DNA from: Antedon mediterranea
Lineage: Eukaryota > Animalia > Echinodermata
Assembly (NCBI RefSeq): GCF_964355755.1
Contig: NC_092673.1
Location: 17,977,648 to 18,041,647, forward strand
Direction of reading: 5' to 3'
Length of the DNA: 64,000 nt
Part shown: positions 8,303-40,078 of the stretch, one piece after another
Layout: every line of letters begins with the position of its first letter
Position numbering within the stretch: position 1 is the first letter of the stretch
Notes under the pieces: model-generated
Told to the model about the DNA's origin: nothing
Database searches by the model: none
The model's input: the letters and a program-made list of their open reading frames with translations, nothing else
Made by a program: the position numbers and the translations under genes

Positions 8303-8390
8303 CATAGAATATGATGATGGACCTATCTAATTTATAGGTCCATGGTATGATAAAGAAATTGGTACACTATTTAAAAAGTGTAATAAGGGA

Positions 8391-10320
8391 TCATCTCACA
8401 GTGTGTTGATTGACTTGGTACTGTAGACCATGCACTGTGGCTGCTGTGTACAATCTCACAGTGTGTTGATTGACTTGGTACTGTACACCATGCACTGTGG
8501 CTGCTGTGTACAATCTCACAGTGTGTTGATTGACTTGGTACTGTACACCATGCACTGTGGGTGCTGTGTACAATCTCACAGTGTGTTGATTGACTTGGTA
8601 CTGTAGACCATGCACTGTGGATGCTGTGTACAATCTCGCAGTGTGTTGATTGACTTGGTACTGTACACCATGCACTGTGGCTGCTGTGTACAATCTCACA
8701 GTGTGTTGATTGACTTGGTGCTGTACACCATGCACTGTGACTGCTGTGTACAATCTCACAGTGTGTTGATTGACTTGGTACTGTACACCATGCACTGTGG
8801 CTGCTGTGTACAATCTCACAGTGTGTTGATTGACTTAGTACTATACACCATGCACTGTGGCTGCTGTGTACAATCTCACAGTGTGTTGATTGACTTGGTA
8901 CTGTACACCATGCACTGTGGCTGCTGTGTACAATCTCACAGTGTGTTGATTGACTTGGTACTGTACACCATTCACTGTGGCTGCTGTGTACAATCTCACA
9001 GTGTGTTGATTGACTTGGTACTGTACACCATGCACTGTGGCTGCTGTGTACAATCTCACAGTGTGTTGATTGACTTGGTACTGTAGACCATGCACTGTGG
9101 CTGCTGTGTACAATCTCACAGTGTGTTGATTGACTTGGTACTGTAGACCATTCACTGTGGCTGCTGTGTACAATCTCACAGTGTGTTGATTGACTTGGTA
9201 CTGTACACCATGCACTGTGGCTGTACAATCTCACAGTGTGTTGATTGACTTGGTACTGTACACCATGCACTGTGGCTGTACAATCTCACAGTGTGTTGAT
9301 TGACTTGGTACTGTAGAACATGCACTGTGGCTGCTGTGTACAATCTCACAGTGTGTTGATTGACTTGGTACTGCTGTGTACAATCTCACAGTGTGTTGAT
9401 TGACTTGGTACTGTACACCATGCACTGTGGGTGCTGTGTACAATCTCACAGTGTGTTGATTGACTTGGTACTGTAGACCATGTACTGTGGATGCTGTTTA
9501 CAATCTCACAGTGTGTTGATTGACTTGGTACTGTACACCATGCACTGTGGCTGCTGTGTACAATCTCACAGTGTGTTGATTGACTTGGTGCTGTACACCA
9601 TGCACTGTGACTGCTGTGTACAATCTCACAGTGTGTTGATTGACTTGGTACTGTACACCATGCACTGTGGCTGCTGTGTACAATCTCACAGTGTGTTGAT
9701 TGACTTGGTACTATATACCATGCACTGTGGCTGCTGTGTACAATCTCACAGTGTGTTGATTGACTTGGTACTGTACACCATGCACTGTGGCTGCTGTGTA
9801 CAATCTCACAGTGTGTTAATTGACTTGGTACTGTACACCATGCACTGTGGCTGCTGTGTACAATCTCACAGTGTGTTGATTGACTTGGTACTGTACACCA
9901 TGCACTGTGGCTGCTGTGTACAATCTCACAGTGTGTTGATTGACTTGGTACTGTACACCATGCACTGTGGCTGCTGTGTACAATCTCACAGTGTCTTGAT
10001 TGACTTGGTACTGTACACCATGCACTGTGGCTGTACAATCTCACAGTGTCTTGATTGACTTGGGACTGTACACCATGCACTGTGGCTGCTGTGTACTACA
10101 ATCTAACAGTGTGTTGATTGACTTGGTACTGTACACCATGCACTGTGGCTGCTGTGTACAATCTCACAGTGTGTTGATTGACTTGGTACTGTACACCATG
10201 CACTGTGGCTGCTGTGTACAATCTCACAGTGTGTTGATTGACTTGGTACTGTACAACATGCACTGTGGCTGCTGTGTACAATCTAACAGTGTGTTGATTG
10301 ACTTGGTACTGTAGACCATG
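8391..10320. repeat. 60-bp tandem satellite, left block
   Basis: Unit GTGTGTTGATTGACTTGGTACTGTACACCATGCACTGTGGCTGCTGTGTACAATCTCACA, about 32 copies. Confidence 0.98.
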
Positions 10321-10518
10321 AGTAGTAGTAGTCCTACTTCAGACCCGACCTTGGTGTATTTCCTGATTACGTAATATCCGCCAGGTGTTTCTAATGTGAG
10401 GATACTGTTGTTGTTCCAGGCAGTGATATAGATGATCGTTACACGGATAGTCAGTCGTGGTTATAACAATGGTTAACAATAGGGATAGTATAAGACAATA
10501 GAGTATATCATTTCACTA

Positions 10519-11480
10519 GAATTGTTATATAGATTTGTTATATATTAATATACATTATAATATAAAATTAATAAATATTAAATAAAAATGATATGGTAAT
10601 TTAGTTGCTTGTGATGAGAACAAAATGGTTTACAATGGTTGAAGTCAATAGATGTTATGTTTCGGATTATAATACAATGGTTAACATAGGGTAAGGAAGT
10701 GAGACAATATAGTTTTTGTAAGATTTGAATTAGTCAGAGTCAATAAAGATGCACCTGGTTAATTAAAACTAGTTAATTGAGGTTTTTGCTTGATCTAAGC
10801 CGACATAATCCAAAGACATAAGTTTTTCGATCCGGATATTATAACAATGACTAAAACAAAAAGATAAGAATGAATGAAGTTAAATAATAAGTATGTCTTG
10901 ATTGAACTATACCGACAGGTAATTAACCATCTTCCGGATTTGTTAACAAAGGGGATAAATCGAAAGCAGTGACACGGGGGTGTTTGACATACTAAAGTTT
11001 AATGTGTGACGTCATGATGTTAGTTTCACTATTTTTGATGATTTTTGTTTTCCAATGTTTAGTTTTATTTTCATTTAAATTGGTTACGTTTACGAAAAGA
11101 TTTCTTTGTTTCCTTTTAAAATAAAACAAAAAGTGGGTAAAGAGGGAATTGTTATATAGAATTGTTATATATTAATATACATTATAATATAAAATTATTA
11201 AATAATAAATAAAAAATATTTGGTGATGATTTAGTCGTTTGTGATGAGAACAAATGGTATACAATGGTTGAAGTCAATAGGTGTTATGTTTCGGATATAA
11301 TATTACAATGGTTAACATTGGGTAAGGAAGTAAAAGATTGTTGTAAGATTTGAATTAGTCATGTACTTGGCGGTATTTTTAAAAAGGGGTACAATAAAAG
11401 ATGCTCCTGGTTTAATTAAAACAACGTAACAACATAAGTTATTTGATCAGGATATTATAACAATGACTAAAACAAAAAGT
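10519..11480 (+). repeat. Diverged ~340-bp direct repeat in the subterminal region (about 10519-10862 vs 11146-11478)
   Basis: Shared blocks GAATTGTTATATAGA...GTGATGAGAACAAA...GGATATTATAACAATGACTAAAACAAAA; mirrored in the right arm. Confidence 0.8.
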
Positions 11481-11976
11481 TAAGAGAATTTAGTACAGTT
11501 TTCATCAGTATGAACTTCTACAAACCAACAGCTGATTACGCCGATTCTAAAATAGCTGATAAGGCTAAGGCTAGTATGCAGCGAGTTATGAGAAAACGGT
11601 TTGATCTTTGATGATTTTGGATCGGACATTTTTTAAATTGAATGACATTGGGGAAGCTACTTAATGAAACAAAAGATACACGGCGCTTCGACACAATGTT
11701 CCGACAGGAAATACAACAATGACAATTGGCTGAAACAAATTTGGTAAATGCCGAATGTAATCCTTTGACTGTATATAACTCTCGAATATTTTGTAATATT
11801 TACCTCATTCTACAACGCTACAGAGCTCGACAAGACAGACAAAAAAAAAAACAACAACTAGTTACTATGGGTTCCGTGATTGAAATCAATGATCTTACTA
11901 TGGACTCTGATGTCGAAGAAGATGTTATATATATATAAGCAGTGATTCAGAATTTGAAGACGAAGACATACTAGCT

Positions 11977-12597
11977 ATGACTGGTGCCTATTTTACAGCA
12001 GAGGAGGAGGAAGAGATGAGGGAAGAGATGGGGGATATGACGTGTTTAATGGCGATTCAACCCCCACCTCCAATGAACGTTGATTTCAATAATGTATCTA
12101 ATACTGAAGAAGACGAACATTATATATCGAGAATAATTTCTGAAGAGGAGAGGATTGTATACGACGACACGTCATCGGTAGTTGACTACCACCTATTTCT
12201 GGCAAGAAAAGCCGATGTAGAAGATGAGGTAGAAGATGGGGTGTTTGCGGAAGAGTACCTGAACCCTGTGCTGGAGGCGGAGATTAAGAAAGAAACTACC
12301 GAACTTGAGTACAAAGAAATAATGAGAACAATTGAGAAGGTTTTCATAGAAGAATTTATATTCATTCTGAAGGACATGGTTGAACGTTATAACTTTCACG
12401 GCTCAAGATATGAACAACTCCTAACATTTTTTCGACCAATTCTGGCATTGAAACTTGTGGACAATAGCGCTACCCATTTTGAATGGGCGCTAAACTACTT
12501 TCATTTACGTTGTATAAATGTTGATGCGTTCGCTAAAGCCATAAAGTTGATTACAAATGATTCAGAACTTTTTAATAAGATTCTTTACCAATTGTAA
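11977..12597 (+). CDS. Maverick accessory ORF of unknown function, acidic N-terminus (206 aa; probably about 242 aa from ATG 11867 before a TA slippage)
   Basis: Open frame, more GC-rich than its flanks; the upstream frame joins it if 2 nt of the (TA)n run at 11926-11937 are removed. Confidence 0.6.
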   Translation: MTGAYFTAEEEEEMREEMGDMTCLMAIQPPPPMNVDFNNVSNTEEDEHYISRIISEEERIVYDDTSSVVDYHLFLARKADVEDEVEDGVFAEEYLNPVLEAEIKKETTELEYKEIMRTIEKVFIEEFIFILKDMVERYNFHGSRYEQLLTFFRPILALKLVDNSATHFEWALNYFHLRCINVDAFAKAIKLITNDSELFNKILYQL

Positions 12598-12850
12598 TTT
12601 GTACAAATTTAAAAAAATATCTTAACACTTTTTTAATTAATGTTACATATTTTTATAATTCTTATTTCTTTTCGGTAAATTTATTATTATTATGGTTGTA
12701 AATTATATTGAAATAGAATATGTGTTAAAATAAAGGTTGTGGTTTTTCTTTTAATAGCAACAACAACGAAAATGAATTTGATCTTTGCGTGTTATTTAAG
12801 TATTTTATTTATTTTTTAAATTTTCATTTTGGTGAATGAGGGTAATAAGT

Positions 12851-13090
12851 ATGGATGAGTACTTAAGAAAAGTATATTACGATCCTAAGCATCCTGATAG
12901 TTTTGGTGGTGTGGACCGACTTTATCAAAATGTAAAATACGATTTAAATATTACCAAGAGACAAGTTCAAGACTGACTGAGCAAGCTAGATACATATACA
13001 TTACACAAATCCATTCAACGTAAATTCAAACGAAACTGGGTGCTTGTAAGTGTTATTGATGAACAATGGGGAATGGATTTGGAAAAATAA
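12851..13090 (+). pseudogene. Maverick/Polinton retroviral-like integrase, N-terminal fragment
   Basis: Hand translation MDEYLRKVYYDPKHPDSFGGVDRLY...VQD*LSKLDTYTLHKSIQRKFKRNWVLVSVIDEQWGMDL fits the YYDP..P.SF.G...LY / YTLHKP.R..F.R / WQ.DL pattern; TGA at 12974; truncated just after the first catalytic Asp. Confidence 0.88.
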
Positions 13091-14600
13091 CGTGTATAAA
13101 ATTTGATTCAGACAAACTGTTTGACTTTAAATTTCCAAAAATCAAAGGAAGTCAATTTTGAAATAGTTGGTAGCATGGTACAAGGAATCGGACTGGAAAA
13201 AATAACAACAACTAATCCTAACAAAATAACCCGTAAACCAAAATCTCACTCTCTACCATTCAAAAATGATGTAGCGATTTTTTCAAGCGGTATTGTCATG
13301 AACGTATTGAAAAGAAAATAGTTTTATTGTCAATGATTTGTCAAGTGTTTTATTTTAATTTCAATTACTGTTGTATTGTATTTAGTTTTAACCGTTCATG
13401 TTGGCATGATCAATATTTGCTCAAACTCCATTTTATCGTTATGTTTGTAGTATTTTAGAGATTCCCGATCATCGTAATAATGATATAACTAGAATTCGTA
13501 ACCGTGTGTTAGATTCCACGCGTATTATATACATATTGTCTTACTTTAATTCCTTCTCTCGTTATTCACCCGATGTAGTTTGATCAAACAATTGTACCTG
13601 AGCCTGAAAGGTTAGTTGTTATGGTACAAGGAATCGGCCCGGAAAATAATTTGTTTTTCTTTTCTGTTAAATTATTATTATGTTTGTGAATTGTGTATTG
13701 CAATAGATTTGTTTAATGAAATTAAATTAATTAGGCCTATGTTTTGACTTAATTTACTGTCAGTGTAAATTTGTAAAAGTAGTTTTTCCTACTTTATTTC
13801 ACGGTAAATTTATTTATCGACTTAATTTAATTTGTTTTCTTTTCTGTTGTTGTTAAATGTAATTGCAGACACACATAATAAATGATTGTGATTATAAATA
13901 TTCTGTTTACTTCTTTTAATTTTAAACAGTACAATAGATCTGTAATGTAAAGTTATATTTTATATATAATAAGTAATATTACAAAAATAAACATACAAAA
14001 TGTATAAAGCATAGATTAATTAAATTTAAATACAATTTCTTTATTTCAACATGAATTTCATTTTCTACGTGTTTTCAATTTTAAATCTTTTAAGAAAGAC
14101 ACAATACGTACTGCTAAAAAAAATAAAACGCACACAAAAGAAAACAAATTTGAGACGCACGATATGTAACGACGGTTTCAATAAAAAGGCATATTATAAA
14201 TGTATTTTTACCAAATTTATAAAGTAAAGGGTTATTATTGAGAAATATACATTTTAGATAAATGATAACAGATCTAAAATTAATTAGAGATATCAATACA
14301 ATATGGTGTTCATAATAATTTGTTTTGATGACTAGATGAAACATCTGAAGACATTCAACAAAAAACAAGCGTTAACACCATACCAGTCACTAAGAATGCT
14401 ACTACTCTGAAAAAAACATCTCCCTTCCAGCACAGAAACAAATTCTGAACGAAAATAAAAAAATAAAAATAATTAGTAAACGAAACACGCGCATTATAAA
14501 TAAAATGAATAATTTAAGAATATTTGTTAAAATACCCACGAACAAAAAAAAAAAAGAAAAAGAAACATACTAACCGATTTATCGTCATTACGAAGTTCAA

Positions 14601-15404
14601 ACAAGGCCAACAGCCATTAAGTCGCGTGCTACAATGCATAGTGATACCGGACCGACAGACAAACAGACTGACAGACAGACAGACCGACAGACAGACGGAC
14701 CGACCGACATAGTGAACTATACTGACCGAAATTACTGAACATGTTTAAAAATGTTGAAATGTTTAAAAACATTTATATTGTTTTAATTTACACGTGCGTA
14801 GCCTGTCACATTTGACGTGCTCGTATAACGTAATTTCGAGTTGAAAATTAAGTCAAGAAAACAGAAATCGGGCAAAAAGTGTGCGCAATAACATTTAACG
14901 CGCAGTGCGCGCGCAAAAATCTGCGCACTCATGGCAATTTTGTAAACGCTTAAAATTGCCTGAAACGTACTCTTATTTCATCGAAAATAAATTTTGAAAA
15001 TTTTAAGCGCGCGTACGCATGCGTTACATGCGCTACGCACGTAATTGTATTGCCATATGATGATTTATGCCCTGAAATTTATGAGTACCAAATTTTATTT
15101 AATTGTGATTCATGGTTGTTAAGATATGATTACAAACGTGATTTCGTTAAATCGTGCGTAGACCGCGTAATTTTTTATTGCGCACCGTGAAAACATAACC
15201 ACATCGATTCCTGGCCATAAGGAATATTCTGTGAAAAATTGACTTAGCTAGATTAAACTGATATCAAGATAAGGTCATAAAGCGACAAAACGCATAGTGA
15301 TACCGGACCGACAGACAGACAGACCGACAGACAGACCGACAGACAGACAGACAGACAGACCGACCGACCGACTTAGTGAACTATAGAGTCGCTTCCACGC
15401 GACT
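14601..15404 (-). mobile_element. Helentron-associated non-autonomous element (HINE/DINE-1-like), left arm only
   Basis: 804-bp insertion absent from the right arm; inserted in an A/T run; subterminal inverted repeats AGTCGCGTG/CACGCGACT, terminal hairpin AGTCGC-TTCCAC-GCGACT, (GACA/GACC)n microsatellites. Confidence 0.75.
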
Positions 15405-15736
15405 AAAAACGAAAACTTTTCCTTGAAAAATCCACAAGAGACACGTTTTACATTTTCTAACTGCATTTCAGTGTCACATTGTTTCGCAACACATGTACAT
15501 ACAACGAGTCCTGTCACAAATCTGCCGACATTTATTTTTGTATCGCTCATCATTTGTTCTAATACATAATACAGCGCTTCCGAAGAAATATCTTTACACA
15601 ATTCTAACACATTAAAATTGTTTTCCAACTCTTTACAAGCACGAATAGTACTCTGGAGGATGGGTGAATCCAAAACAATTAACCCCGTCAATTTATATTC
15701 AATGTATGCTAAAACTACTTCCTCTAAATCAACCAT
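15275..15736 (-). pseudogene. Bcl-2-like ORF, left-arm copy disrupted by the HINE
   Basis: Matches the right-arm copy up to FFKEKFSF (one A/S change), then reads into HINE microsatellite (SVGLSVCL). Confidence 0.65.
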
Positions 15737-17401
15737 AACGCTCGACAAAACAAATGATAATGGATGTAATTACCAAGAAAGTTACAACTTAAAACATTTA
15801 TTTTTTGTTTTTAAAAAGAAGTTGTAACATAGAAACTAATTTTGTCAGGAAATGTGTTTTTATTATTTATGTGATTTATTTGTGTTTAGAAAGTTACAAC
15901 ATTAAGATTTAATTTTGTCAAAAAAAATGTGAACATACGGAGCCGAATGTAATTTTTAATCCTTAGTATAGTGAAGAGATTTTATAAAAAAAAAATAAAG
16001 AGCGAACGGAAACTAATGATTTTAGATTAGCCATATAGAAATTAAATGTTGTCAAGATAGTTGTCAAAAATAAATAAAATATATTATACTGAATTTACTT
16101 TGTACATTTATTTAATTTAGGCCGTAATTAGGGTTGTTGTTCATTTATGATTGTGAAAAATATACATACGAATAAAACAGCTATATATATATATAAAAAA
16201 AAAAATAATGATTCAGTGTTATAATTTTATTTACCTGTCATTATGTTAAATAAAACATATTCTAAATTAAATTTATATCATGTTAGATATATTTTCTAAT
16301 TACGTTTTTTCAATATAAATGTATTATTATGTTGTCGATAGTTGTGTAAAAAACGTAATTACAAACTCTACTATGACACGCATGTAAACACAAACAGTAT
16401 TTACTTCTCTAACTAAGTTTGATATTCGCCATAACACTATGTCATATCATCAAACGACTTGTTTTATTTTTTTTAAGTAATTATTTTCTAAAAGATTGTT
16501 AACAAATACCGAATTACCGGAGGAAGTCTGTCCGCTAATCACCGCGGTGAAAGGTGTTACTAAACGCCCAGTCATTGTCATTATACTGCGTTCTTAACTT
16601 GAATTTTCATATAAGTAGTTGAAAACAAAAATTTTAAAAATGTAACAAGATTCATGAAACAATTATTTTTTTTTTTATGTAACAAACTTAATGACAAAAT
16701 AAATTTTATGCAAAAAGATTCTTGACAAATTATTTTTATGTAACAAATTTAATGATAAAATAAAATTTATGTAAAAAGATTCTTGATAAATTATTTTTTA
16801 TTTAACGAATTTCATGACCATTTTGTTTTCTTATGTAACAAGTTTTTGATTCTGAAATTAATCGACATACTTATAAAGAATAAATCTATAATCACAATTA
16901 AATTTATAAACAAATAATGATATTTAATATTAGTATAATTATTTCCATACAAAAAGTATAAATAAATTCAAATATTTACACACAAAAATATTGCATAAAT
17001 GATATTTACAAAATAATTACAAAGGTTAAAAATAAATTCTCTTATTTACAAGAATATTACACAAATAATTCTTAAAAACTTAAACGAACTAGGCCTACTG
17101 AACAAATGGACTGAATGACAAAATATTTTTTTCAACAAAATAATTCTTTATGTTATATACGGTTGATAAAATCAATTGATGCAACTAATTCTTAGCAAAA
17201 TAATTTTCTGTTACAAATTTCTTGTAAAAAATAAATTTATGTAACGAATTTCTTTACAAATTAATTTTTATGTAACAAATATTTTGAAAAATTTATTTTC
17301 ATGTAACAAATTTATCTACAAAAATATTTTTATGAAACAAACTTCTTAACAAATTTATCTTATGTAACAAATTTCTTTACAAATTTATTTTTATGTAACA
17401 A

Positions 17402-17720
17402 ATGTTGTTGAAAATATTGTGTTTCAAAGGTTACAACAATAAATTTGAACATAAATGTAAATTCAGTTGTGAGCTATGTTGCTCCAATGATTGCACTCCT
17501 TCATTGGAATCAGTAACTATCATTTCATGTAATGAATGTAATCGTTCTTTTAAAAATCAAAAATGTTTTAACAATCACAAATCTTCAAAAAATGGTACAA
17601 AAAACGGTTTGTGATATTAAAAAAATCTGTAAGGAGTGCAATCGTTTCATTAAGAAGGATCATAAATGCAATGAATATACGTGTAAAGTATGTAATCTAA
17701 AAGTTTCATTGCATTTATGA
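17402..17720 (+). pseudogene. Fragment of the Cys-rich N-terminal region of Maverick protein-primed DNA polymerase B
   Basis: CFKGYNNKFEHKC..SCELC...C...CNECNRSFKNQKCFNNHK, a frameshift in the A-run near 17600, then VCDIKKICKECNRFIKKDHKCNEYTCKVC; spacing resembles the region preceding the exonuclease domain of animal Maverick pPolB. Confidence 0.7.
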
Positions 17721-19147
17721 TCCTTCTTAATGAAACGATTGCACTCCTTACAGATTTTTTTAATATCACAAACCGTTTGTGAAAATTTTTTTGCTAAGAA
17801 TTAGTTGCATCAATTGATTTTATCAACCGTATGTAACATAAAGAATTATTTTGTTGAAAAAAAACATTTTGTCATTCAGTCCATTTGTTCAGTAGGCCTA
17901 GTTCGTTTAAGTTTTTAAGAATTATTTGTGTAATATTCTTGTAAATAAGAGAATTTATTTTTAACCTTTGTAATTATTTTGTAAATATCATTTATGCAAT
18001 ATTTTTGTGTGTAAATATTTGAATTTATTTATACTTTTTGTATGGAAATAATTATACTAATATTAAATATCATTATTTGTTTATAAATTTAATTGTGATT
18101 ATAGATTTATTCTTTATAAGTATGTCGATTAATTTCAGAATCAAAAACTTGTTACATAAGAAAAAAAAATGGTCATGAAATTCGTTAAATAAAAAATAAT
18201 TTATCAAGAATCTTTTTACATAAATTTTATTTTATCATTAAATTTGTTACATAAAAATAATTTGTCAAGAATCTTTTTGCATAAAATTTATTTTGTCATT
18301 AAGTTTGTTACATAAAAAAAAAAAATAATTGTTTCATGAATCTTGTTACATTTTTTAAATTTTTGTTTTCAACTACTTATATGAAAATTCAAGTTAAGAA
18401 CGCAGTATAATGACAATGACTGGGCGTTTAGTAACACCTTTCACCGCGGTGATTAGCGGACAGACTTCCTCCGGTAACTCGGTATTTGTTAACAATCTTT
18501 TAGAAAATAATTACTTTAAACAAATAAAACAAGTCGTTTGATGATATGACATAGTGTTATGGCGAATATCAAACTTAGTTAGAGAAGTAAATACTGTTTG
18601 TGTTTACATGCGTGTCATAGTAGAGTTTGTAATTACGTTTTTTACACAACTATCGACAACATAATAATACATTTATATTGAAAAAACGTAATTAGAAAAT
18701 ATATCTAACATGATATAAATTTAATTTAGAATATGTTTTATTTAACATAATGACAGGTAAATAAAATTATAACACTGAATCATTATTTTTTTTTTATATA
18801 TATATATAGCTGTTTTATTCGTATGTATATTTTTCACAATCATAAATGAACAACAACCCTAATTACGGCCTAAATTAAATAAATGTACAAAGTAAATTCA
18901 GTATAATATATTTTATTTATTTTTGACAACTATCTTGACAACATTTAATTTCTATATGGCTAATCTAAAATCATTAGTTTCCGTTCGCTCTTTTTTTTTT
19001 TTTATAAAATCTCTTCACTATACTCAGGATTAAAAATTACATTCGGCTCCGTATGTTCACATTTTTTTTGACAAAATTAAATCTTAATGTTGTAACTTTC
19101 TAAACACAAATAAATCACATAAATAGAATAGTGGAAATTCACTCAAA

Positions 19148-22100
19148 ATGGAATCGTTGAAATTTAAGCCGCCTCCACCCTTCGATTTTGATGGTCCTAG
19201 TGTGTCTGCTGCTTGGAAAAGGTGGAAACAGAGATTTACATTCTTTCTGAAAGCGACTGGCAGTGCACGTAAAAGTGGTGAAATAAAGGTAGCAATTTTA
19301 ATTACTACACTGGAAGGGCGTGGCTTAGATATTTACAACAACTTTACGTTCACTGATCTTGTAGGCGAACCGGGTCAGGAAGATTATGTCCCAGCAGAGG
19401 ACAATAATGATTTTGATACAGTAATGTCAAAGTATGATGAATACTGTAATAAACGGGACCCGATAATGGCGTTACGAGCGCAATATTGGCAATATGAACG
19501 ACCCGAAGGTCAGGGTTTGGATGAGTTTGTGAATGACTTAAGAACAATGGCGGTGAATTGTAAATTTGTGGATCAAGACGGTACGATTCGTGATAAGCTT
19601 TTCTTCAGTGTAACAAATCCAGTGATGAAAATGAAAGTTATGGGCGATGATGGCAACGCTACACTTGATACTGTGATACACCGAATGAGAATTTTTGAGA
19701 GTTCTAGACGCGAGCTTGAAATGGCCGGTGTTGCAAGTGATTATAAGCCGAAGGTTCATGCATTAAGAAGAACCAAATCACATAAACAGACGCCAAGGGT
19801 TAGTGGTCAACAGAATCATCAGTTTACGGATGCAGCCAAAACTAAATGTAGCAGGTGCGGTTCTTCACATCTACCTCGTCAGTGTCCAGCTTATGGTAAA
19901 ACATGCTACGGGTGTAAGGGTTTGAATCATTTTCAGTCTGTGTGCACCAAACGTTTTTCCCGAGGACGCGGTCGTGAACGTGGAAGAGCTGTACATACAA
20001 TGGATGAACAGTATATTATTGCCGAAGGTGTAAGTGATCCTAATGACTTATACATTGACACTTTAACTGTTAAAGATAAAAATGAGTACTTTTATATTGA
20101 CACTCTAAGAGATAACGATGACAAGAACGCTTGGTTCTATGATGTGTTTGTGGGAGGTAATGTGTTAAAGATGAAGCTTGACACAGGAGCAGGTGTTAAC
20201 TGCATACCACTGGAAACATTTAGAAAGTTACCAGGACATAAGAACATTAAAGTATATCATTCTAAAACTAACCTATATAGTTATGGTGATGAAATTGTAA
20301 AACATATTGGTAAAGTTACTCTAAATGTAAAAGTTGATAACATCCAAAATGATTATGACTTCTTTATTACTAATGTTGATGGTCCACCTATACTTGGATT
20401 GAAAGCCTGTAGGGAGCTTGGTCTGATCAAACGTGGTAACAATATGATGTGTAGTGATAATGTGATAAATAATAAATATGTACATGCACTAACTAAAGAT
20501 TCTTTGATTCGAGAGAATCGTGATGTATTTACAGGTTTAGGTAAATATCAAGATCCTTATGACATCAAGTTGAAAAGTGGTGTTTCTCCAGTAGTCCATC
20601 CACCCCGCAGGGTGCCACTTAGTCTGCATACCAAGCTGAAAGAAAAACTTGACGATATGGAGAAGAGGGGCGTGATTAAACGGACCGACAAACCAACAGA
20701 TTGGGTCAACAGCCTAGTGATAGTGGAGAAACGAGACGGATCCTTGAGGTTGTGCTTGGATCCACGTGATTTGAACAAAGCCATTAGACGTGAACATCAT
20801 ATGATACCGACCGGTAAGGACGTAGTGAGTCAGCTGTCAGGTAAAACACTTTTCACTGTCTTTGACCAGAAAGATGCGTACTGGCAAGTTCCTCTTACTG
20901 ACGCTAGCGCAGATATATGTACATTCAATACTCCTTTTGGACGATACAGTTTTCTAAGAATGCCATTTGGTATCTGCAGTGCTAGTGAGGTGCTACAGAA
21001 ACGAAACCAGCAAATATTTGGTCATATACCTAACGTACACATAATATCTGATGATATGATTATAGCTACAGGTAGTGAAGCAGAGCATAATGCAACAGTA
21101 CAGAGGGTGATGGATACGGCCAGAGCGAACAATGCCAAATTCAATGGAAGCAAGCTTAAGTATAAACAGTCTGAATTGGTGTTCATGGGAAACGTGGTGA
21201 GTGCCGATGGACAGAAACCAGACGAAGAAAAGGTTAGAGTTATCAAAGAAATGCCTGACCCACAATGTAAATCTGACTTGCAACGTATAATGGGGATGCT
21301 TAATTATCTTTCACAATTCATACCTAATATGTCCAATGTGAGTGCACCTCTCCGGGAATTGCTCAAGAAAGATGTTGCATGGTTTTGGGGTCCAGAACAA
21401 GCAGAATCCCTGAGGCAATTAAAGGCGTTGATTAGTAGCAAACCAGTCTTAAGTTTCTTTGATCCACAGAAGCCAACCATTATCCAATGTGATGCATCAT
21501 CCACAGGGCTCGGAAGCTGTTTGCTTCAAGAGGGTCATCCGGTTGCGTTTGCCTCTAGGTCGTTAACATCAGCTGAAGTTAATTACTCACAAATTGAGAA
21601 GGAGATGTTGGCGATCTGCTTTTCTATACACAAATACCACCAATATGTATATGGCCGAGCTGTTGAAGTTCACACTGACCATAAACCACTCGAAACAATC
21701 ACACGTAAACCACTCCATAAAGCTAGTCCTAGAATACAACAAATGCTGCTCAAATTGATAAAGTATGAGCTTGATGTTAAGTATGTTCCTGGAAAGTACA
21801 TGTACATAGCTGATGCTCTCAGCAGAGCATATCCTGATAAGGTTGATCGTGATGCCCAACCCCTTGAACAGTTGAAATATAGGGTGCATAGTCTAGACGA
21901 AATATTGCCCATGAGTAAAGCAAAAATTGAAGAAGCAATACGAGCTACACAGGCAGATGTGGTACTCCAAACTCTAATTCTAACATGCAAAAGCGGGTGG
22001 CCTAAACATAGATGGGGTGCACCGGAGCAAGTTAGGCAGTATTGGCATCTTCGTGATGAGATACATGAAATTGATGGTCTTGTGTTTTTAGGTGAGAAGT

Positions 22101-23143
22101 TGATTGTTCCTAGCCAAATGAGAGCAGATATGCTGAATAAAATTCATGAAAGTCACCTTGGGATGGAGAAGTGTAAGGCGAGGGCCAGGTCTATTTTGTA
22201 TTGGCCAGGTATGACCAACGATATAGAATCAGTAGTGTCAAGGTGCCCTGTTTGTGTAAAGTTCATGCGTAGAAATCAACGGGAGCCGATGATTCCACAT
22301 AAGGTTCCTATGAGACCATGGGCTAAGCTGGGCGCGGATATATATACATTCGCTGGCAGAGATCATCTTATTGTAGTTGACTATTTTTCCAAATACCCGG
22401 AAGTAGTGACACTCACTAGCAAAACGGCTGGAGAAATCATCAAAAAATTGAAATCTATATTCTCAAGACATGGCATCCCTGAAATATTAATGACTGATAA
22501 CATGCCGTTCGCCAGCTACGAGTTCAAACGGTTTGCTAACCAGTGGGGGTTCGATTTAGTGACGTCCAGTCCGACATATGCCAGAAGTAATGGGCAAGTT
22601 GAACGTTTCGTCCAAACCATTAAGCAACTCATGAGGAAGTCCGTTGATGAGGGAAGCGATTTTCATCTTGCTCTACTAGACTATCGTGATTCACCAATTG
22701 CAGGGTTGAATTGTTCTCCTGCTCAGTTGTTGATGAGCAGAAAGTTAAGGTCAACACTTCCAGTCACACATACATTGCTGCAACCACAAGTTATTGTCGG
22801 AGCTAGAGATTTCCTTCAGTCACGTCAACAGTCTATGACAAAATATTATGATCGTGGTACACGTGTATTGACGAAACTAAGAAAAGGGGACAACGTGAGA
22901 ATATTGAAAGGACGGCAATGGGAACCTGCTGTTGTGGCTAAGGAACATGAGCTACCCCGTTCATATGTAGTGATGACCGAAGATGGAACGTCGTACAGAC
23001 GGAATCGACAACATTTATTAAACACTCAACAACCGGATACTTTGCAGAAGGGCGTACCAACTTTGCAGAAGGTACCGGAAGCACCACCCTTACGTAGAAG
23101 TGATCGTGTTAGTCGTCCACCGGATCGATTGGATTATAAATAA
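19148..23143 (+). CDS. Gypsy Gag-Pol polyprotein, 1331 aa, open
   Basis: Two zinc knuckles (CSRCGSSH..QC, CYGCKGLNHFQSVC), protease LDTGA, RT (LCLDPRDLN, RMPFG, ISDD), RNase H (CDASSTG, YSQIEKE, TDHKPL), integrase (H..H...CPVC, ADIY, TDN, SNGQVER), in PR-RT-RH-IN order. Confidence 0.96.
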   Translation: MESLKFKPPPPFDFDGPSVSAAWKRWKQRFTFFLKATGSARKSGEIKVAILITTLEGRGLDIYNNFTFTDLVGEPGQEDYVPAEDNNDFDTVMSKYDEYCNKRDPIMALRAQYWQYERPEGQGLDEFVNDLRTMAVNCKFVDQDGTIRDKLFFSVTNPVMKMKVMGDDGNATLDTVIHRMRIFESSRRELEMAGVASDYKPKVHALRRTKSHKQTPRVSGQQNHQFTDAAKTKCSRCGSSHLPRQCPAYGKTCYGCKGLNHFQSVCTKRFSRGRGRERGRAVHTMDEQYIIAEGVSDPNDLYIDTLTVKDKNEYFYIDTLRDNDDKNAWFYDVFVGGNVLKMKLDTGAGVNCIPLETFRKLPGHKNIKVYHSKTNLYSYGDEIVKHIGKVTLNVKVDNIQNDYDFFITNVDGPPILGLKACRELGLIKRGNNMMCSDNVINNKYVHALTKDSLIRENRDVFTGLGKYQDPYDIKLKSGVSPVVHPPRRVPLSLHTKLKEKLDDMEKRGVIKRTDKPTDWVNSLVIVEKRDGSLRLCLDPRDLNKAIRREHHMIPTGKDVVSQLSGKTLFTVFDQKDAYWQVPLTDASADICTFNTPFGRYSFLRMPFGICSASEVLQKRNQQIFGHIPNVHIISDDMIIATGSEAEHNATVQRVMDTARANNAKFNGSKLKYKQSELVFMGNVVSADGQKPDEEKVRVIKEMPDPQCKSDLQRIMGMLNYLSQFIPNMSNVSAPLRELLKKDVAWFWGPEQAESLRQLKALISSKPVLSFFDPQKPTIIQCDASSTGLGSCLLQEGHPVAFASRSLTSAEVNYSQIEKEMLAICFSIHKYHQYVYGRAVEVHTDHKPLETITRKPLHKASPRIQQMLLKLIKYELDVKYVPGKYMYIADALSRAYPDKVDRDAQPLEQLKYRVHSLDEILPMSKAKIEEAIRATQADVVLQTLILTCKSGWPKHRWGAPEQVRQYWHLRDEIHEIDGLVFLGEKLIVPSQMRADMLNKIHESHLGMEKCKARARSILYWPGMTNDIESVVSRCPVCVKFMRRNQREPMIPHKVPMRPWAKLGADIYTFAGRDHLIVVDYFSKYPEVVTLTSKTAGEIIKKLKSIFSRHGIPEILMTDNMPFASYEFKRFANQWGFDLVTSSPTYARSNGQVERFVQTIKQLMRKSVDEGSDFHLALLDYRDSPIAGLNCSPAQLLMSRKLRSTLPVTHTLLQPQVIVGARDFLQSRQQSMTKYYDRGTRVLTKLRKGDNVRILKGRQWEPAVVAKEHELPRSYVVMTEDGTSYRRNRQHLLNTQQPDTLQKGVPTLQKVPEAPPLRRSDRVSRPPDRLDYK

Positions 23144-23218
23144 ATGTATCAATAATTAACTTCATTTTATGTTTATTTTGCAGATATCATGTTTATTTTC
23201 AAACCATCCTATAATGTA

Positions 23219-23346
23219 TGAAACATATGAATGTGATCTAAGAAACAATTTGAAACATATGAATGTGGTCTAAGAAACAATTTGAAACATATGAATGTGA
23301 TCTAAGAAACAATTTGAAACATATGAATGTGATCTAAGAAACAATT
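23219..23346 (+). repeat. Four 32-bp tandem repeats in the Gypsy 3' UTR
   Basis: TGAAACATATGAATGTGATCTAAGAAACAATT x4. Confidence 0.95.
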
Positions 23347-23477
23347 TATGTTTAAGGAAAAGTAATATTATTTATTTATGAGAATGTGATATATCGTGTC
23401 TAATTTACTTTTGATATTAATTTTTTTTAAAAATAAAAATTAAACTTTAGAAATTTATTTTGTTAGAAAAGGAAAGA

Positions 23478-23613
23478 TGTCACATATGCTCTGTTAATAT
23501 GCTAATTATATTTGTTTGTTATTTGCAAATTATGCAAACTACGTTACGCTCGGTGAAGTAATAAAACAGTAGTTGAATTAAAAGAACCGTGTTGACGAGT
23601 CACACTTGTAATA
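23478..23613 (+). repeat. Short Gypsy 3' LTR (~136 bp)
   Basis: Starts TG right after the polypurine tract; AATAAA at 23560; ends TGTAATA (non-canonical) where Maverick arm sequence resumes. Confidence 0.7.
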
Positions 23614-23743
23614 TAATAAAAACACATTTCCTGACAAAATTAGTTTCTATGTTACAACTTCTTTTTAAAAACAAAAAAATAAATGTTTTAAGTTGTAACT
23701 TTCTTGGTAATTACATCCATTATCGTTTGTTTTGTCGAGCGTT

Positions 23744-24274
23744 ATGGTTGATTTAGAGGAAGTAGTTTTAGCATACATTGAATATAAATTGACGGGGTTA
23801 ATTGTTTTGGATTCACCCATCCTCCAGAGTACTATTCGTGCTTGTAAAGAGTTGGAAAACAATTTTAATGTGTTAGAATTGTGTAAAGATATTTCTTCGG
23901 AAGCGCTGTATTATGTATTAGAACAAATGATGAGCGATACAAAAATAAATGTCGGCAGATTTGTGACAGGACTCGTTGTATGTACATGTGTTTCGAAACA
24001 ATGTGACACTGAAATGCAGTTAGAAAATGTAAAACGTGTCTCTTGTGGATTTTTCAAGGAAAAGTTTTCGTTTTTTGAACTTCGTAATGACGATAAATCG
24101 GTTAGTATGTTTCTTTTTCTTTCTTTTTTTTTGTTCGTGGGTATTTTAACAAATATTCTTAAATTATTCATTTTATTTATAATGCGCGTGTTTCGTTTAC
24201 TAATTATTTTTATTTTTTTATTTTCGTTCAGAATTTGTTTCTGTGTAGGAAGGGAGATGTTTTTTTCAGAGTAG
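23744..24274 (+). CDS. Bcl-2-like protein carried by the Maverick derivative (uninterrupted copy)
   Basis: BH4-like LEEVVLAYIEYKL, BH3-like LQSTIRACKELE, BH1-like MMSDTKINVGRFVTGL (cf. NWGR) and a hydrophobic C-terminal tail; BH2 poorly recognisable; first ATG is 23744 (the ORF-track start is TTG). Confidence 0.7.
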   Translation: MVDLEEVVLAYIEYKLTGLIVLDSPILQSTIRACKELENNFNVLELCKDISSEALYYVLEQMMSDTKINVGRFVTGLVVCTCVSKQCDTEMQLENVKRVSCGFFKEKFSFFELRNDDKSVSMFLFLSFFLFVGILTNILKLFILFIMRVFRLLIIFIFLFSFRICFCVGREMFFSE

Positions 24275-25585
24275 TAGCATTCTTAGTGACTGGTATGGTG
24301 TTAACGCTTGTTTTTTGTTGAATGTCTTCAGATGTTTCATCTAGTCATCAAAACAAATTATTATGAACACCATATTGTATTGATATCTCTAATTAATTTT
24401 AGATCTGTTATCATTTATCTAAAATGTATATTTCTCAATAATAACCCTTTACTTTATAAATTTGGTAAAAATACATTTATAATATGCCTTTTTATTGAAA
24501 CCGTCGTTACATATCGTGCGTCTCAAATTTGTTTTCTTTTGTGTGCGTTTTATTTTTTTTAGCAGTACGTATTGTGTCTTTCTTAAAAGATTTAAAATTG
24601 AAAACACGTAGAAAATGAAATTCATGTTGAAATAAAGAAATTGTATTTAAATTTAATTAATCTATGCTTTATACATTTTGTATGTTTATTTTTGTAATAT
24701 TACTTATTATATATAAAATATAACTTTACATTACAGATCTATTGTACTGTTTAAAATTAAAAGAAGTAAACAGAATATTTATAATCACAATCATTTATTA
24801 TGTGTGTCTGCAATTACATTTAACAACAACAGAAAAGAAAACAAATTAAATTAAGTCGATAAATAAATTTACCGTGAATTAAAGTAGGAAAAACTACTTT
24901 TACAAATTTACACTGACAGTAAATTAAGTCAAAACATAGGCCTAATTAATTTAATTTCATTAAACAAATCTATTGCAATACACAATTCACAAACATAATA
25001 ATAATTTAACAGAAAAGAAAAACAAATTATTTTCCGGGCCGATTCCTTGTACCATAACAACTAACCTTTCAGGCTCAGGTACAATTGTTTGATCAAACTA
25101 CATCGGGTGAATAACGAGAGAAGGAATTAAAGTAAGACAATATGTATATAATACGCGTGGAATCTAACACACGGTTACGAATTCTAGTTATATCATTATT
25201 ACGATGATCGGGAATCTCTAAAATACTACAAACATAACGATAAAATGGAGTTTGAGCAAATATTGATCATGCCAACATGAACGGTTAAAACTAAATACAA
25301 TACAACAGTAATTGAAATTAAAATAAAACACTTGACAAATCATTGACAATAAAACTATTTTCTTTTCAATACGTTCATGACAATACCGCTTGAAAAAATC
25401 GCTACATCATTTTTGAATGGTAGAGAGTGAGATTTTGGTTTACGGGTTATTTTTTTAGGATTAGTTGTTGTTATTTTTTCCAGTCCGATTCCTTGTACCA
25501 TGCTACCAACTATTTCAAAATTGACTTCCTTTGATTTTTGGAAATTTAAAGTCAAACAGTTTGTCTGAATCAAATTTTATACACG

Positions 25586-25825
25586 TTATTTTTCCAAATC
25601 CATTCCCCATTGTTCATCAATAACACTTACAAGCACCCAGTTTCGTTTGAATTTACGTTGAATGGATTTGTGTAATGTATATGTATCTAGCTTGCTCAGT
25701 CAGTCTTGAACTTGTCTCTTGGTAATATTTAAATCGTATTTTACATTTTGATAAAGTCGGTCCACACCACCAAAACTATCAGGATGCTTAGGATCGTAAT
25801 ATACTTTTCTTAAGTACTCATCCAT
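25586..25825 (-). pseudogene. Maverick integrase N-terminal fragment, right-arm copy
   Basis: Reverse complement of 12851-13090 with the same internal TGA. Confidence 0.88.
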
Positions 25826-26078
25826 ACTTATTACCCTCATTCACCAAAATGAAAATTTAAAAAATAAATAAAATACTTAAATAACACGCAAAGATCAAAT
25901 TCATTTTCGTTGTTGTTGCTATTAAAAGAAAAACCACAACCTTTATTTTAACACATATTCTATTTCAATATAATTTACAACCATAATAATAATAAATTTA
26001 CCGAAAAGAAATAAGAATTATAAAAATATGTAACATTAATTAAAAAAGTGTTAAGATATTTTTTTAAATTTGTACAAA

Positions 26079-26699
26079 TTACAATTGGTAAAGAATCTTA
26101 TTAAAAAGTTCTGAATCATTTGTAATCAACTTTATGGCTTTAGCGAACGCATCAACATTTATACAACGTAAATGAAAGTAGTTTAGCGCCCATTCAAAAT
26201 GGGTAGCGCTATTGTCCACAAGTTTCAATGCCAGAATTGGTCGAAAAAATGTTAGGAGTTGTTCATATCTTGAGCCGTGAAAGTTATAACGTTCAACCAT
26301 GTCCTTCAGAATGAATATAAATTCTTCTATGAAAACCTTCTCAATTGTTCTCATTATTTCTTTGTACTCAAGTTCGGTAGTTTCTTTCTTAATCTCCGCC
26401 TCCAGCACAGGGTTCAGGTACTCTTCCGCAAACACCCCATCTTCTACCTCATCTTCTACATCGGCTTTTCTTGCCAGAAATAGGTGGTAGTCAACTACCG
26501 ATGACGTGTCGTCGTATACAATCCTCTCCTCTTCAGAAATTATTCTCGATATATAATGTTCGTCTTCTTCAGTATTAGATACATTATTGAAATCAACGTT
26601 CATTGGAGGTGGGGGTTGAATCGCCATTAAACACGTCATATCCCCCATCTCTTCCCTCATCTCTTCCTCCTCCTCTGCTGTAAAATAGGCACCAGTCAT
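26079..26699 (-). CDS. Maverick accessory acidic ORF, right-arm copy
   Basis: Protein identical to that of 11977-12597. Confidence 0.6.
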   Translation of the reverse strand: MTGAYFTAEEEEEMREEMGDMTCLMAIQPPPPMNVDFNNVSNTEEDEHYISRIISEEERIVYDDTSSVVDYHLFLARKADVEDEVEDGVFAEEYLNPVLEAEIKKETTELEYKEIMRTIEKVFIEEFIFILKDMVERYNFHGSRYEQLLTFFRPILALKLVDNSATHFEWALNYFHLRCINVDAFAKAIKLITNDSELFNKILYQL

Positions 26700-28355
26700 A
26701 GCTAGTATGTCTTCGTCTTCAAATTCTGAATCACTGCTTATATATATATAACATCTTCTTCGACATCAGAGTCCATAGTAAGATCATTGATTTCAATCAC
26801 GGAACCCATAGTAACTAGTTGTTGTTTTTTTTTTTGTCTGTCTTGTCGAGCTCTGTAGCGTTGTAGAATGAGGTAAATATTACAAAATATTCGAGAGTTA
26901 TATACAGTCAAAGGATTACATTCGGCATTTACCAAATTTGTTTCAGCCAATTGTCATTGTTGTATTTCCTGTCGGAACATTGTGTCGAAGCGCCGTGTAT
27001 CTTTTGTTTCATTAAGTAGCTTCCCCAATGTCATTCAATTTAAAAAATGTCCGATCCAAAATCATCAAAGATCAAACCGTTTTCTCATAACTCGCTGCAT
27101 ACTAGCCTTAGCCTTATCAGCTATTTTAGAATCGGCGTAATCAGCTGTTGGTTTGTAGAAGTTCATACTGATGAAAACTGTACTAAATTCTCTTAACTTT
27201 TTGTTTTAGTCATTGTTATAATATCCTGATCAAATAACTTATGTTGTTACGTTGTTTTAATTAAACCAGGAGCATCTTTTATTGTACCCCTTTTTAAAAA
27301 TACCGCCAAGTACATGACTAATTCAAATCTTACAACAATCTTTTACTTCCTTACCCAATGTTAACCATTGTAATATTATATCCGAAACATAACACCTATT
27401 GACTTCAACCATTGTATACCATTTGTTCTCATCACAAACGACTAAATCATCACCAAATATTTTTTATTTATTATTTAATAATTTTATATTATAATGTATA
27501 TTAATATATAACAATTCTATATAACAATTCCCTCTTTACCCACTTTTTGTTTTATTTTAAAAGGAAACAAAGAAATCTTTTCGTAAACGTAACCAATTTA
27601 AATGAAAATAAAACTAAACATTGGAAAACAAAAATCATCAAAAATAGTGAAACTAACATCATGACGTCACACATTAAACTTTAGTATGTCAAACACCCAC
27701 GTGTCACTGCTTTCGATTTATCCCCTTTGTTAACAAATCCGGAAGATGGTTAATTACCTGTCGGTATAGTTCAATCAAGACATACTTATTATTTAACTTC
27801 ATTCATTCTTATCTTTTTGTTTTAGTCATTGTTATAATATCCGGATCGAAAAACTTATGTCTTTGGATTATGTCGGCTTAGATCAAGCAAAAACCTCAAT
27901 TAACTAGTTTTAATTAACCAGGTGCATCTTTATTGACTCTGACTAATTCAAATCTTACAAAAACTATATTGTCTCACTTCCTTACCCTATGTTAACCATT
28001 GTATTATAATCCGAAACATAACATCTATTGACTTCAACCATTGTAAACCATTTTGTTCTCATCACAAGCAACTAAATTACCATATCATTTTTATTTAATA
28101 TTTATTAATTTTATATTATAATGTATATTAATATATAACAAATCTATATAACAATTCTAGTGAAATGATATACTCTATTGTCTTATACTATCCCTATTGT
28201 TAACCATTGTTATAACCACGACTGACTATCCGTGTAACGATCATCTATATCACTGCCTGGAACAACAACAGTATCCTCACATTAGAAACACCTGGCGGAT
28301 ATTACGTAATCAGGAAATACACCAAGGTCGGGTGTGAAGTAGGACTACTACTACT

Positions 28356-29668
28356 ACCATGCACTGTGGCTGCTGTGTACAATCTCACAGTGTGTTGATT
28401 GACTTGGTACTGTACACCATGCACTGTGGCTGCTGTGTACAATCTCACAGTGTGTTGATTGACTTGGTACTGTAGACCATGCACTGTGGCTGCTGTGTAC
28501 AATCTCAAAAGCCCCTTTCTCACAGAGTTGTGTGCCAGGAATATTGCGGGAATATACCATTACCATGCCGGTATGGTTTTCTGTGAGAACGGGTCGTCTT
28601 GACATCATGCCGGCACCATGCCGGCATCGACATGACCTGCTTTAGACCTAGTAATATTCTAGGGATATTCCCCGCAATGCCAGAAGGGCATTCTGTGAGA
28701 ACGTATCGCCGTTATATTCCGGGGTTCCCCGTCGAGGCTTTGACACCTTGCGCGGTCAAGTGTATCACTTTGGCGCCTATTCAATTCAATTAACAATAAT
28801 AATGTCGAACTGGAGGGATAATGAGATAAGAGAGCTGCTTAAAATAAGGGGACAAGAAGAAATTTGTAGTATAATCTATAGGCCGCTAGGCTAGGCCATT
28901 AGCTCTTTGTTTGTAATGTTGGTGCCATGACCTTTCGTCGCCTTGTAAATTGTAGGCCTACAGCCTTCTAAGGTGTTTTACAGATTGCCGATGACGGCAA
29001 ATTAATTGCTATACCTGTATAATATATGCACAATATACTGTACATAGCATGTATTGCATAAATATGCTATAAAGGAAGATAATAATCTGTAACTTAACAT
29101 TCGCCGCCATATCATCGCTAGACAAAAATAATAACAATAAAGGACGCCCTCAATAATTATTTTGTCAGAGACTTTTTATTGGCCGAATATGCCCGACTCC
29201 TTTCTCACAGAAAGCCGGCATATACCGGTTATATTTCCGGCACGATAGTCCGATGAGAATGGGTATATGCCGGTAACGATACCGGCACGACGCCAGCACT
29301 GTACCGGTATATTGCAGGCACATCTGTGAGAAAGGGGCTCTAGTGTGTTGATTGACTTGGTACTGTACACCATGCACTGTGACTGCTGTGTACAATCTCA
29401 CAGTGTGTTGATTGACTTGGTGCTGTACACCATGCACTGTGACTGCTGTGTACAATCTCACAGTGTGTTGATTGACTTGGTACTGCACACCATGCACTGT
29501 GGCTGCTGTGTACAATCTCACAGTGTGTTGATTGACTTGGTACTGTAGACCATGCACTGTGGCTGCTGTGTACAATCTCACAGTGTGTTGATTGACTTGG
29601 TACTGTACACCATGCACTGTGACTGCTGTGTACAATCTCAGAGTGTGTTGATTGACTTGGTACTGTAC
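28356..29668. repeat. 60-bp satellite, right block (interrupted by a MITE)
   Basis: Same unit, orientation and phase as 8391-10320. Confidence 0.95.
28510..29339. mobile_element. MITE with Harbinger-like TIRs inserted in the satellite
   Basis: TIRs AGCCCCTTTCTCACAG / CTGTGAGAAAGGGGCT; internal TGTGAGAA repeats; TSD not clean, so the superfamily is uncertain. Confidence 0.65.

Positions 29669-40047: not shown

Positions 40048-40078
<31 letters not shown>

Follow-up and report, generated by a model that had tools for sequence, protein, structure and literature searches.

A fold-back palindrome derived from a Maverick/Polinton in the genome of Antedon mediterranea

The question raised by this locus is how a palindrome of 18 kb came to lie, bounded by a target-site duplication (TSD), inside a host satellite. 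The window analyzed is a 64-kb stretch of contig NC_092673.1 of Antedon mediterranea. The palindromic insertion occupies positions 10321-28355 (18,035 bp), and when two inserts confined to one arm each (803 bp and 4,487 bp) are subtracted, an element of 12,745 bp remains. A host 60-bp satellite (8393-10320, forward strand) forms the left flank; it resumes on the right (28356-28507, forward strand), beyond which the DNA is unique. The initial annotation had reported (AGT)4 termini and a duplication of ACCATG with the orientation and phase of the satellite kept, and both were borne out. The copies of this perfect 6-bp TSD lie at 10315-10320 and 28356-28361 (both forward strand), a hexamer of this type occurs once per satellite unit, and the element begins with (AGT)4 (10321-10332, forward strand) and ends with (ACT)4 finishing at 28355. 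Maverick/Polinton ends are recognized by (AGT)2//(ACT)2 or (AG)3//(CT)3, and (AGT)n-type ends with a 6-bp TSD are given for Mavericks in the available text of a published survey (PMC8097293); the ends and duplication found here are of this kind. The 64-kb window contains a single pair of element ends, and one copy of the palindrome is known here.

The arms were paired by Self-BLAST and global alignment. The outer pairing joins 10321-14604 to 28355-24071 (99.8% identity), the middle pairing 15405-15866 to 24075-23613 (99.4%) and the inner pairing 15864-17208 to 19125-17781 (99.0%), giving a paired core of 6,085 bp in addition to a perfect apex stem of 74 bp. The 18-kb inverted repeat and the core of about 12.7 kb described earlier were recovered, with about 6.1 kb of arm paired. 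Relative to the right arm, the outer segment of the left arm (10321-14601, forward strand) has 6 substitutions and 1 indel, and the inner segment (15405-17208, forward strand) has 11 substitutions and 5 indels. The right arm consists of an inner segment (17781-19125) and of middle and outer segments (23613-28355) with the (ACT)4 at their end, all on the reverse strand. An old internal direct duplication (10519-10869 and 11146-11485, 77%, spanning 10519-11485 on the forward strand) is mirrored in the right arm, and two AT-rich arrays of 31-bp tandem units (16671-16818 and 17134-17418, spanning 16671-17418 on the forward strand) lie further in. Palindromes are a recognized class of assembly artefact, and 8 of the 17 arm substitutions lie within or next to homopolymer runs, as an assembly error or a chimeric read could produce. 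However, the right flank is no mirror of the left: past the element the satellite keeps its forward orientation and its phase, the duplication amounts to exactly 6 bp, the two arms carry different inserts, and a gap of 393 bp is one-sided. An artefact was rejected as very improbable.

The arms meet at an apex (17602-17778) composed of a perfect 74-bp stem (17602-17675 paired with 17705-17778) and a 29-nt loop (17676-17704); its folding gave z = -24, with 200 shuffles as the control. It sits within a remnant of the pPolB gene, at the 3' end of the Cys-rich piece. The 393 bp at 17209-17601 (forward strand) are found in the left arm only, with no mirror, and the right-arm junction of this gap (17778/17781) falls at a common ACAAA pentamer. 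The element is self-complementary from one terminus and has its hairpin junction inside parental sequence, as is expected of a snap-back product. Judged from this arrangement, the fold-back origin proposed by the initial annotation is well supported, the apex lying inside the pPolB remnant.

Two other origins for the arms were also rejected. Long gene-bearing TIRs could have arisen by gradual expansion, this copy then being internally deleted; butterfly polintons carry the core genes hexon and adenain in TIRs of about 2 kb, according to the available text (10.1101/2025.02.07.637071), and the gradient of identity from termini to center is compatible with expansion in steps or with panhandle correction. 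Against this history, which was judged improbable, stand the 29-nt loop by which the arms are joined midway through a disrupted pPolB frame, the 74-bp perfect central stem, which is not expected after internal deletion, and the vertebrate TIRs, which measure only 46-1,447 bp in the accessible part of the published record (PMC8097293). Head-to-head joining of two family copies, by a nested inverted insertion, recombination between TIRs and a deletion, would allow arm differences from the outset, and inversions in C. elegans are driven by Polinton copies and their TIRs. It would need two breakpoints within 29 nt of one position in two copies, and the arms are only 0.14-0.6% apart, which makes it hardly credible.

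The Maverick homology of the element consists of remnants of three genes, 43-95 codons each. An N-terminal integrase remnant (12851-13081, forward strand; mirror 25595-25825) shows 79% identity to P0001 (rve) over 77 aa, contains one in-frame stop and ends abruptly past residue 77. A C-terminal pPolB remnant (13109-13237, forward strand) aligns with the L005 polymerase ORF at residues 854-895 with a best E of 3e-7; the pPolB search gave 18 matches, as compared with 0-7 across 20 shuffles. A frameshifted remnant of the Cys-rich region of pPolB was found at 17420-17702 (forward strand; sum E 3e-11 against L037:3035-3745). Whole-ORF pPolB profiles recovered no remnant in the element; with profiles of 150-aa windows, remnants were found by 3 of the 14 windows, and reversed frames gave none. 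The earlier statement that no ATPase is recognizable was wrong, as an N-terminal remnant of an A32-like packaging ATPase is present in each arm (16429-16578, reverse strand; mirror at about 18413-18562). This remnant has a degenerate Walker A motif and two stops, and it was matched with E 2e-6 by a 37-sequence profile, reversed frames being without a match. For the other ORF families of L005, 6 of 7 profiles had no match below E 0.2 in the element and the seventh matched the integrase remnant only; Pfam named none of the scanned L005 ORFs, whose capsid and protease identities are presumptive. All three remnants are truncated or broken, and an intact autonomous gene set is absent. Taken with the ends and the TSD, these sequences support the annotated identity of the element as a Maverick/Polinton derivative. 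The stops are identical between the arms, and because the two arms share these broken fragments, gene decay preceded the fold-back.

Two further ORFs are carried by the arms. An acidic ORF of 228 codons (11911-12597, forward strand; mirror 26079-26765) is identical in both and probably represents the 3' portion of a gene with a frameshift; no homologue was found among 122 word-sharing candidates, in viral contigs or in the Atlas. An ORF of 176 codons with a hydrophobic tail (23744-24274, forward strand) is open in the right arm, and its left copy is split by the 803-bp insert. This ORF is weakly Bcl-2-like: it scored 21.7 bits against Pfam PF00452 (E 3e-4; cut-off 31.4), its best PDB sequence match was fowlpox FPV039 (E 0.076), and its Atlas neighbors were Bcl-2-like (at most 0.89). 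A single-sequence model was of low confidence (pLDDT <50 over residues 1-115) and had no Foldseek match at E 0.001, with 9 of the 11 listed PDB rows belonging to the Bcl-2 family. Nothing was found in the viral library or viral contigs, and none of 135 word-sharing candidates was homologous; a phmmer match to P0002, a Sushi-repeat protein, was rejected as spurious. Bcl2 homologues have been reported in adintoviruses, as far as the available text goes. A reading of selection from the intactness of these ORFs was dropped, as the acidic ORF seems to carry a frameshift at its 5' end and low-complexity sequence makes up the Bcl-2-like tail.

The first 656 bp of the arms differ at one position, and the element can be described as having fresh ends on decayed genes. 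This bears on the history in which an autonomous Maverick inserted long ago, decayed on site and folded back afterwards. Such a course would explain the decay without a helper, and the TSD would be inherited. If a decay of 3-10% per copy is assumed, the chance is 0.28-0.01 that the terminal 21 bp remain identical between the ends and 0.69-0.28 that the TSD remains perfect, while no more than one difference over 656 bp has a probability of <1e-15; owing to this improbable match, the rejoining would have to be confined to the last few tens of bases, and the history was considered quite improbable.

The differences between the arms are unevenly spread, with 6 substitutions in 4,281 positions of the outer arms and 11 in 1,801 of the inner arms (stratified P 0.006). 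They are also rich in transversions, the ratio being 4:13, whereas six pairs of control repeats gave a value near 1:1. One event with neutral divergence afterwards does not account for this pattern unless conversion or error-prone synthesis is added. Three differences were polarized by eye against the 31-bp units, and the odd allele lay twice in the left arm and once in the right, a tiny sample that does not suggest one error-prone strand.

The insert in the left arm (14602-15404, 803 bp, no strand assigned) contains a duplicated subterminal module and a GACA microsatellite; a clear TSD was not found, and we take the insert to be Helentron/HINE-like. The right arm alone contains a Ty3/Gypsy insert of 4,487 bp (19126-23612, forward strand) with a gag-pol frame open over 1,338 codons (19127-23143), a purine tract and a single LTR-like 3' end starting at 23479. 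It has neither a 5' LTR nor a 4-6-bp TSD, its junctions overlap by 3 bp, and a second copy of the 137-bp LTR-like piece is absent from the window. Normal Ty3/Gypsy integration, which leaves two LTRs and a 4-6-bp TSD, was rejected. The insert has the look of an incomplete cDNA that was captured, and this suggests that a chromosomal break was repaired here. Both had been annotated as later insertions; they are later than the fold-back, though not necessarily later than integration.

A further account is a fold-back in place. Here, a decayed, ordinary-ended, non-autonomous Maverick would have inserted recently, and a chromosomal break would then have primed its own repair, with the left arm copied in reverse and the end rejoined within the right TIR; such a one-off rearrangement keeps the TSD and involves no mobile palindrome. 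At the sequence level it fits as well as the preferred account, and host repair would suit the microhomology at the 393-bp gap, the Gypsy fragment without 5' LTR and TSD (cDNA capture is known at breaks) and the greater frequency of arm differences near the apex. However, a second rare event is required at the same locus, and the few polarized alleles give no hint of one error-prone strand; this explanation was considered somewhat unlikely.

The preferred account is that the palindrome folded before integrating and was inserted as one unit, in trans, by a helper integrase; on the evidence of the sequence, its probability is put at roughly 0.6. The TSD does not prove this order, because an in-place fold-back landing in the right-hand TIR also keeps it. 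The parent was a non-autonomous mosaic with short scraps of integrase, pPolB and ATPase, the breaks of which are common to both arms. The form of the apex suggests that a 3' end that was broken or had stalled primed itself via a short inverted match, leaving the 29-nt loop, and was extended to the terminus by a helper pPolB or a host polymerase, which are not separable here. The product would have had two identical ends, each supplying a signal for priming and integration, and at about 13.1 kb at birth it would have been near the lower size limit of intact Mavericks. Helper proteins would then replicate it, might also package it, and would insert it with a 6-bp duplication of the target. The 393-bp loss bounded by microhomology and the two one-arm inserts, whichever came first, widened the spacer and would stabilize the palindrome, and the outer arms may have been homogenized more often than the inner ones. 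The account gains support from the core length of 12,745 bp, which is close to the 12,723 bp of the smallest intact vertebrate Maverick, though this match may be due to chance. Against it weigh the single copy seen, the uneven and transversion-rich differences between the arms, the sign of break repair given by the Gypsy insert, and the lack of a close autonomous relative among the sequences searched.

Ordinary inverted repeats of 0.37-1.0 kb were found in 7 of the 22 compared Maverick loci of at least 7 kb. The arm DNA had no match in 63 fetched Maverick loci. These are only distantly related (integrase identity to P0001 of 31-57%) and cannot represent the helper; they are probably short-read assemblies, which would hide palindromes, and the absence of palindromes there carries little weight. 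The terminal 18-mer had no match and P0001 no locus in the viral contigs, and no autonomous close relative was found among viral contigs, word-sharing candidates and fetched loci. No comparable element was found in the literature searched, the nearest being the butterfly polintons with their 2-kb gene-bearing TIRs. As far as the available portions of the sources describe them, adintovirus-type Mavericks/Polintons (PMC8097293, PMC8502044) share with this element the (AGT)n ends, the 6-bp TSD, the rve, pPolB and A32-like ATPase genes, here as remnants, and perhaps a Bcl-2-like accessory ORF, and its core length lies at the bottom of their range (12.7-24.6 kb). In contrast, no core gene is intact here, the other gene families of a full-length relative are unmatched, one end occurs twice, and the inverted repeat of about 6.1 kb is fourfold the longest of the vertebrate TIRs (46-1,447 bp) and closes in a hairpin. 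In autonomous elements the TIRs reach about 1.5-2 kb and enclose a unique center that holds the genes; here, the 29-nt loop takes the place of that center. Butterfly polintons are alike in doubling core genes within long inverted repeats and in having non-autonomous, polB-less forms with Gypsy or LINE cargo that are apparently still mobile; the part of the report available describes a large unique center and intact genes (10.1101/2025.02.07.637071), whereas this element is nearly all repeat with a central fold-back junction. Snap-back genomes of AAV (PMC8235507) and other snap-back defective viral genomes likewise comprise a terminus with adjacent partial genes, are self-complementary and would need a helper, but those of AAV are transient packaged molecules, while the present element sits in a chromosome, flanked by a TSD, and had an already decayed parent. 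Fold-back junctions at yeast DNA breaks, in the accessible text, have stems from 4 bp, one class with loops of 25-44 nt (PMC7467729). Short-stem self-priming, a loop of tens of nucleotides and secondary rearrangement near the junction are common to both; here, the inverted segment ends exactly at a mobile-element terminus and is bounded by a TSD. The novelty of this copy is that the turning point is still preserved.

A wider and more tentative reading, held at somewhat under even odds, is that Mavericks recurrently spawn snap-back satellites that integrate in the germ line: a deleted, half-length derivative would double by fold-back and then be copied and integrated by a helper. Doubling would restore two functional ends and a packageable length of 13 kb, and this copy would be a near-birth record, with its hairpin apex, stabilizing deletion and Bcl-2-like cargo.

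To our knowledge, no replication cycle of an animal Maverick has been directly observed. If the preferred account is true, a fold-back product bounded by a TSD is the fossil of a free, end-primed replication intermediate, and copying and integration need only two copies of one end. A size floor of about 13 kb among such palindromes would give indirect evidence of packaging. Fold-back would also be a route to gene-poor giant foldback elements, and the locus serves as a warning that palindromes of this kind are readily thrown out as assembly errors.

The palindromic insert claimed by the initial annotation was borne out by self-comparison of 10321-28355, which consists of three inverted blocks with identities of 99.8, 99.4 and 99.0%. 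Two inserts interrupt the blocks, one of 803 bp in the left arm and one of 4,487 bp in the right; the element is 18,035 bp long, or 12,745 bp once both are subtracted. It starts with (AGT)4 and finishes with (ACT)4, ACCATG flanks it on either side, and the host 60-bp satellite, with one ACCATG-type hexamer per unit, continues beyond it in the same orientation and phase, so that the earlier claims on termini, duplication and flanks were likewise confirmed. This end motif and length of TSD are those described for Mavericks (PMC8097293). A fold-back read artefact, which should have given a mirrored flank, was rejected, as the flank observed is non-mirrored. The same satellite contains an 830-bp MITE-like element (28510-29339), located 150 bp to the right of the Maverick derivative; its terminal inverted repeats are 26 bp long, and their motif recurs in its interior.

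A 46-codon piece of the arm matched one protein, the rve integrase P0001. The integrase remnant (12851-13081 and its mirror) is 79% identical to P0001 across 77 residues, and one in-frame stop is common to the two copies. With P0001 as query, 63 loci were obtained from metagenome contigs, and the arm was compared with their ORFs. One of these loci, L005, encodes a pPolB, an A32-like ATPase and an rve-chromo integrase within 668-bp inverted repeats; these are the TIRs of an apparently near-complete 15.5-kb Maverick (384-15912 of the contig), the genes of which are all on one strand. The initial annotation had reported no recognizable ATPase; an N-terminal ATPase remnant was found on the minus strand at 16429-16578 (profile E 2e-6; 0 matches for reversed frames), with two stops in both arms. 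A C-terminal scrap of pPolB (13109-13237) matched 18 ORFs at E ≤0.001, as against 0-7 in 20 shuffles, its best six matches all mapping to the L005 polymerase, and the Cys-rich region of pPolB was recognized at 17420-17702 (sum E 3e-11). Profile search with seven other ORF families of L005 gave no independent match in the arm. Related AT-rich 31-bp tandem arrays (16671-16818 and 17134-17418) lie between the ATPase and pPolB remnants.

Whereas the integrase, pPolB and ATPase genes of L005 are collinear on one strand, the element holds scraps of less than 100 codons in another order and in both orientations. Since the breaks are common to both arms, decay and scrambling preceded the fold-back, or the last homogenization of the arms. 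Judged by its ends, TSD and gene remnants, the element is classed as a Maverick derivative and autonomous membership is excluded. A direct duplication near the terminus (10519-10869 and 11146-11485; 77% identical), each copy of which retains vestiges of a short reading frame, is older than the fold-back, and a short direct repeat within the arm (12655-12717 and 13646-13707; 77%) adds to the signs that the arm had been rearranged internally at an earlier stage.

A 176-codon ORF (23744-24274 and 15275-15769, the left copy being split by the 803-bp insert) showed a weak resemblance to Bcl-2 in Pfam, PDB sequence search, Atlas and Foldseek, no score reaching its threshold; its greatest likeness, also under all thresholds, was to viral Bcl-2 proteins. 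Bcl2 homologues are already on record in adintoviruses (PMC8502044). For a 228-codon acidic ORF, no relative was found in the Atlas, word-sharing candidates or viral contigs.

The centre is more than a spacer between two arms: the left arm continues through 393 bp that have no mirror (17209-17601) to a perfect 74-bp stem closing on a 29-nt loop (17676-17704), and the apex sits at the end of the Cys-rich remnant. On the right side, the stem is followed directly by the counterpart of 17208, the switch falling at a shared ACAAA pentamer. The simplest reading would be a near-perfect palindrome of ~13.1 kb with a 29-nt loop, from which 393 bp on one side were subsequently deleted; the effective spacer would then have become 572 bp. 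It has been reported that palindrome instability falls as the spacer lengthens (PMC7999016). A fold-back origin of the palindrome is well supported. The initial annotation had invoked pPolB template switching, which is one option for the junction; fold-back inversions in yeast have loops of comparable size with short stems (PMC7467729), and host repair could therefore have produced it just as pPolB could.

The arms differ by 17 substitutions (a mismatch at 14602, at the insert boundary, was left out), of which the outer 4,281 bp hold 6 and the inner 1,801-1,804 bp the other 11 (Fisher P 0.003; 0.006 when stratified by homopolymer context, neither stratum being significant alone). Eight of the 17 are in or adjoin runs of four or more, and the ratio of transitions to transversions is 4:13; six control repeat pairs from the window, taken together, give 153:158. 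Uniform ageing after a single event predicts no such gradient. Its source could be end-biased correction within a self-annealed free form, as in adenovirus panhandle repair, gene conversion between the arms in the chromosome, or error-prone synthesis near the apex. An old history in place, with insertion, decay and fold-back at the locus, is unlikely because fresh ends and TSD coexist with decayed genes (assumed decay 3-10%). A recent ordinary insertion that folded back at the locus, rejoining in its own right TIR, is the less probable of the two readings that remain. We favour, at a probability of roughly 60%, formation of the palindrome in a copy that was free or earlier, followed by integration in trans.

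Both inserts are younger than the fold-back. In the left one, a subterminal module that bears a GACA microsatellite is duplicated; the insert resembles Helentron-associated elements. The right one (19126-23612), a Gypsy gag-pol whose frame is open over 1,338 codons, starts 22 bp upstream of its first ATG and ends ~135 bp inside a single LTR-like sequence that is preceded by a purine tract; the junction overlap is 3 bp, and neither a 5′ LTR nor a TSD was found at its borders. This span would match an unfinished reverse transcript, possibly captured, and retrotransposon cDNA is known to be captured at breaks (PMC11724301). As polintons carry inserted cargo of Gypsy or LINE type (10.1101/2025.02.07.637071), either insert may precede integration. 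Elsewhere, 32218-33816 and 37147-40057 hold three dispersed retroposon-like repeats of ~1.1-1.2 kb (88-90% identity), two of the three followed by 29-nt A runs, together with an inverted 0.5-kb pair. A decayed reverse-transcriptase fragment lies at 2947-3264 (minus), and further long tandem arrays at 34563-36744, 52106-53844 and 55184-57963 have periods of 30, 31 and 71 bp.

The observation is real, and the palindromic form departs from published Mavericks. Searches of the open literature gave no Maverick that is palindromic over its whole length, though a curated Repbase entry may exist. The nearest published cases are polintons with 2-kb gene-bearing TIRs (10.1101/2025.02.07.637071), protist virophages, whose terminal palindromes are short, and the snap-back genomes of AAV (PMC8235507). 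No non-autonomous copies were reported for lizard Polintons (PMC3014272). The build resembles that of a snap-back genome, and the element probably depends on a helper. The core of 12,745 bp is close to the 12,723 bp of the smallest intact vertebrate Maverick (PMC8097293), a match that may hint at a packaging floor. The particular value of the element lies in its apex, which is preserved within a polymerase remnant.
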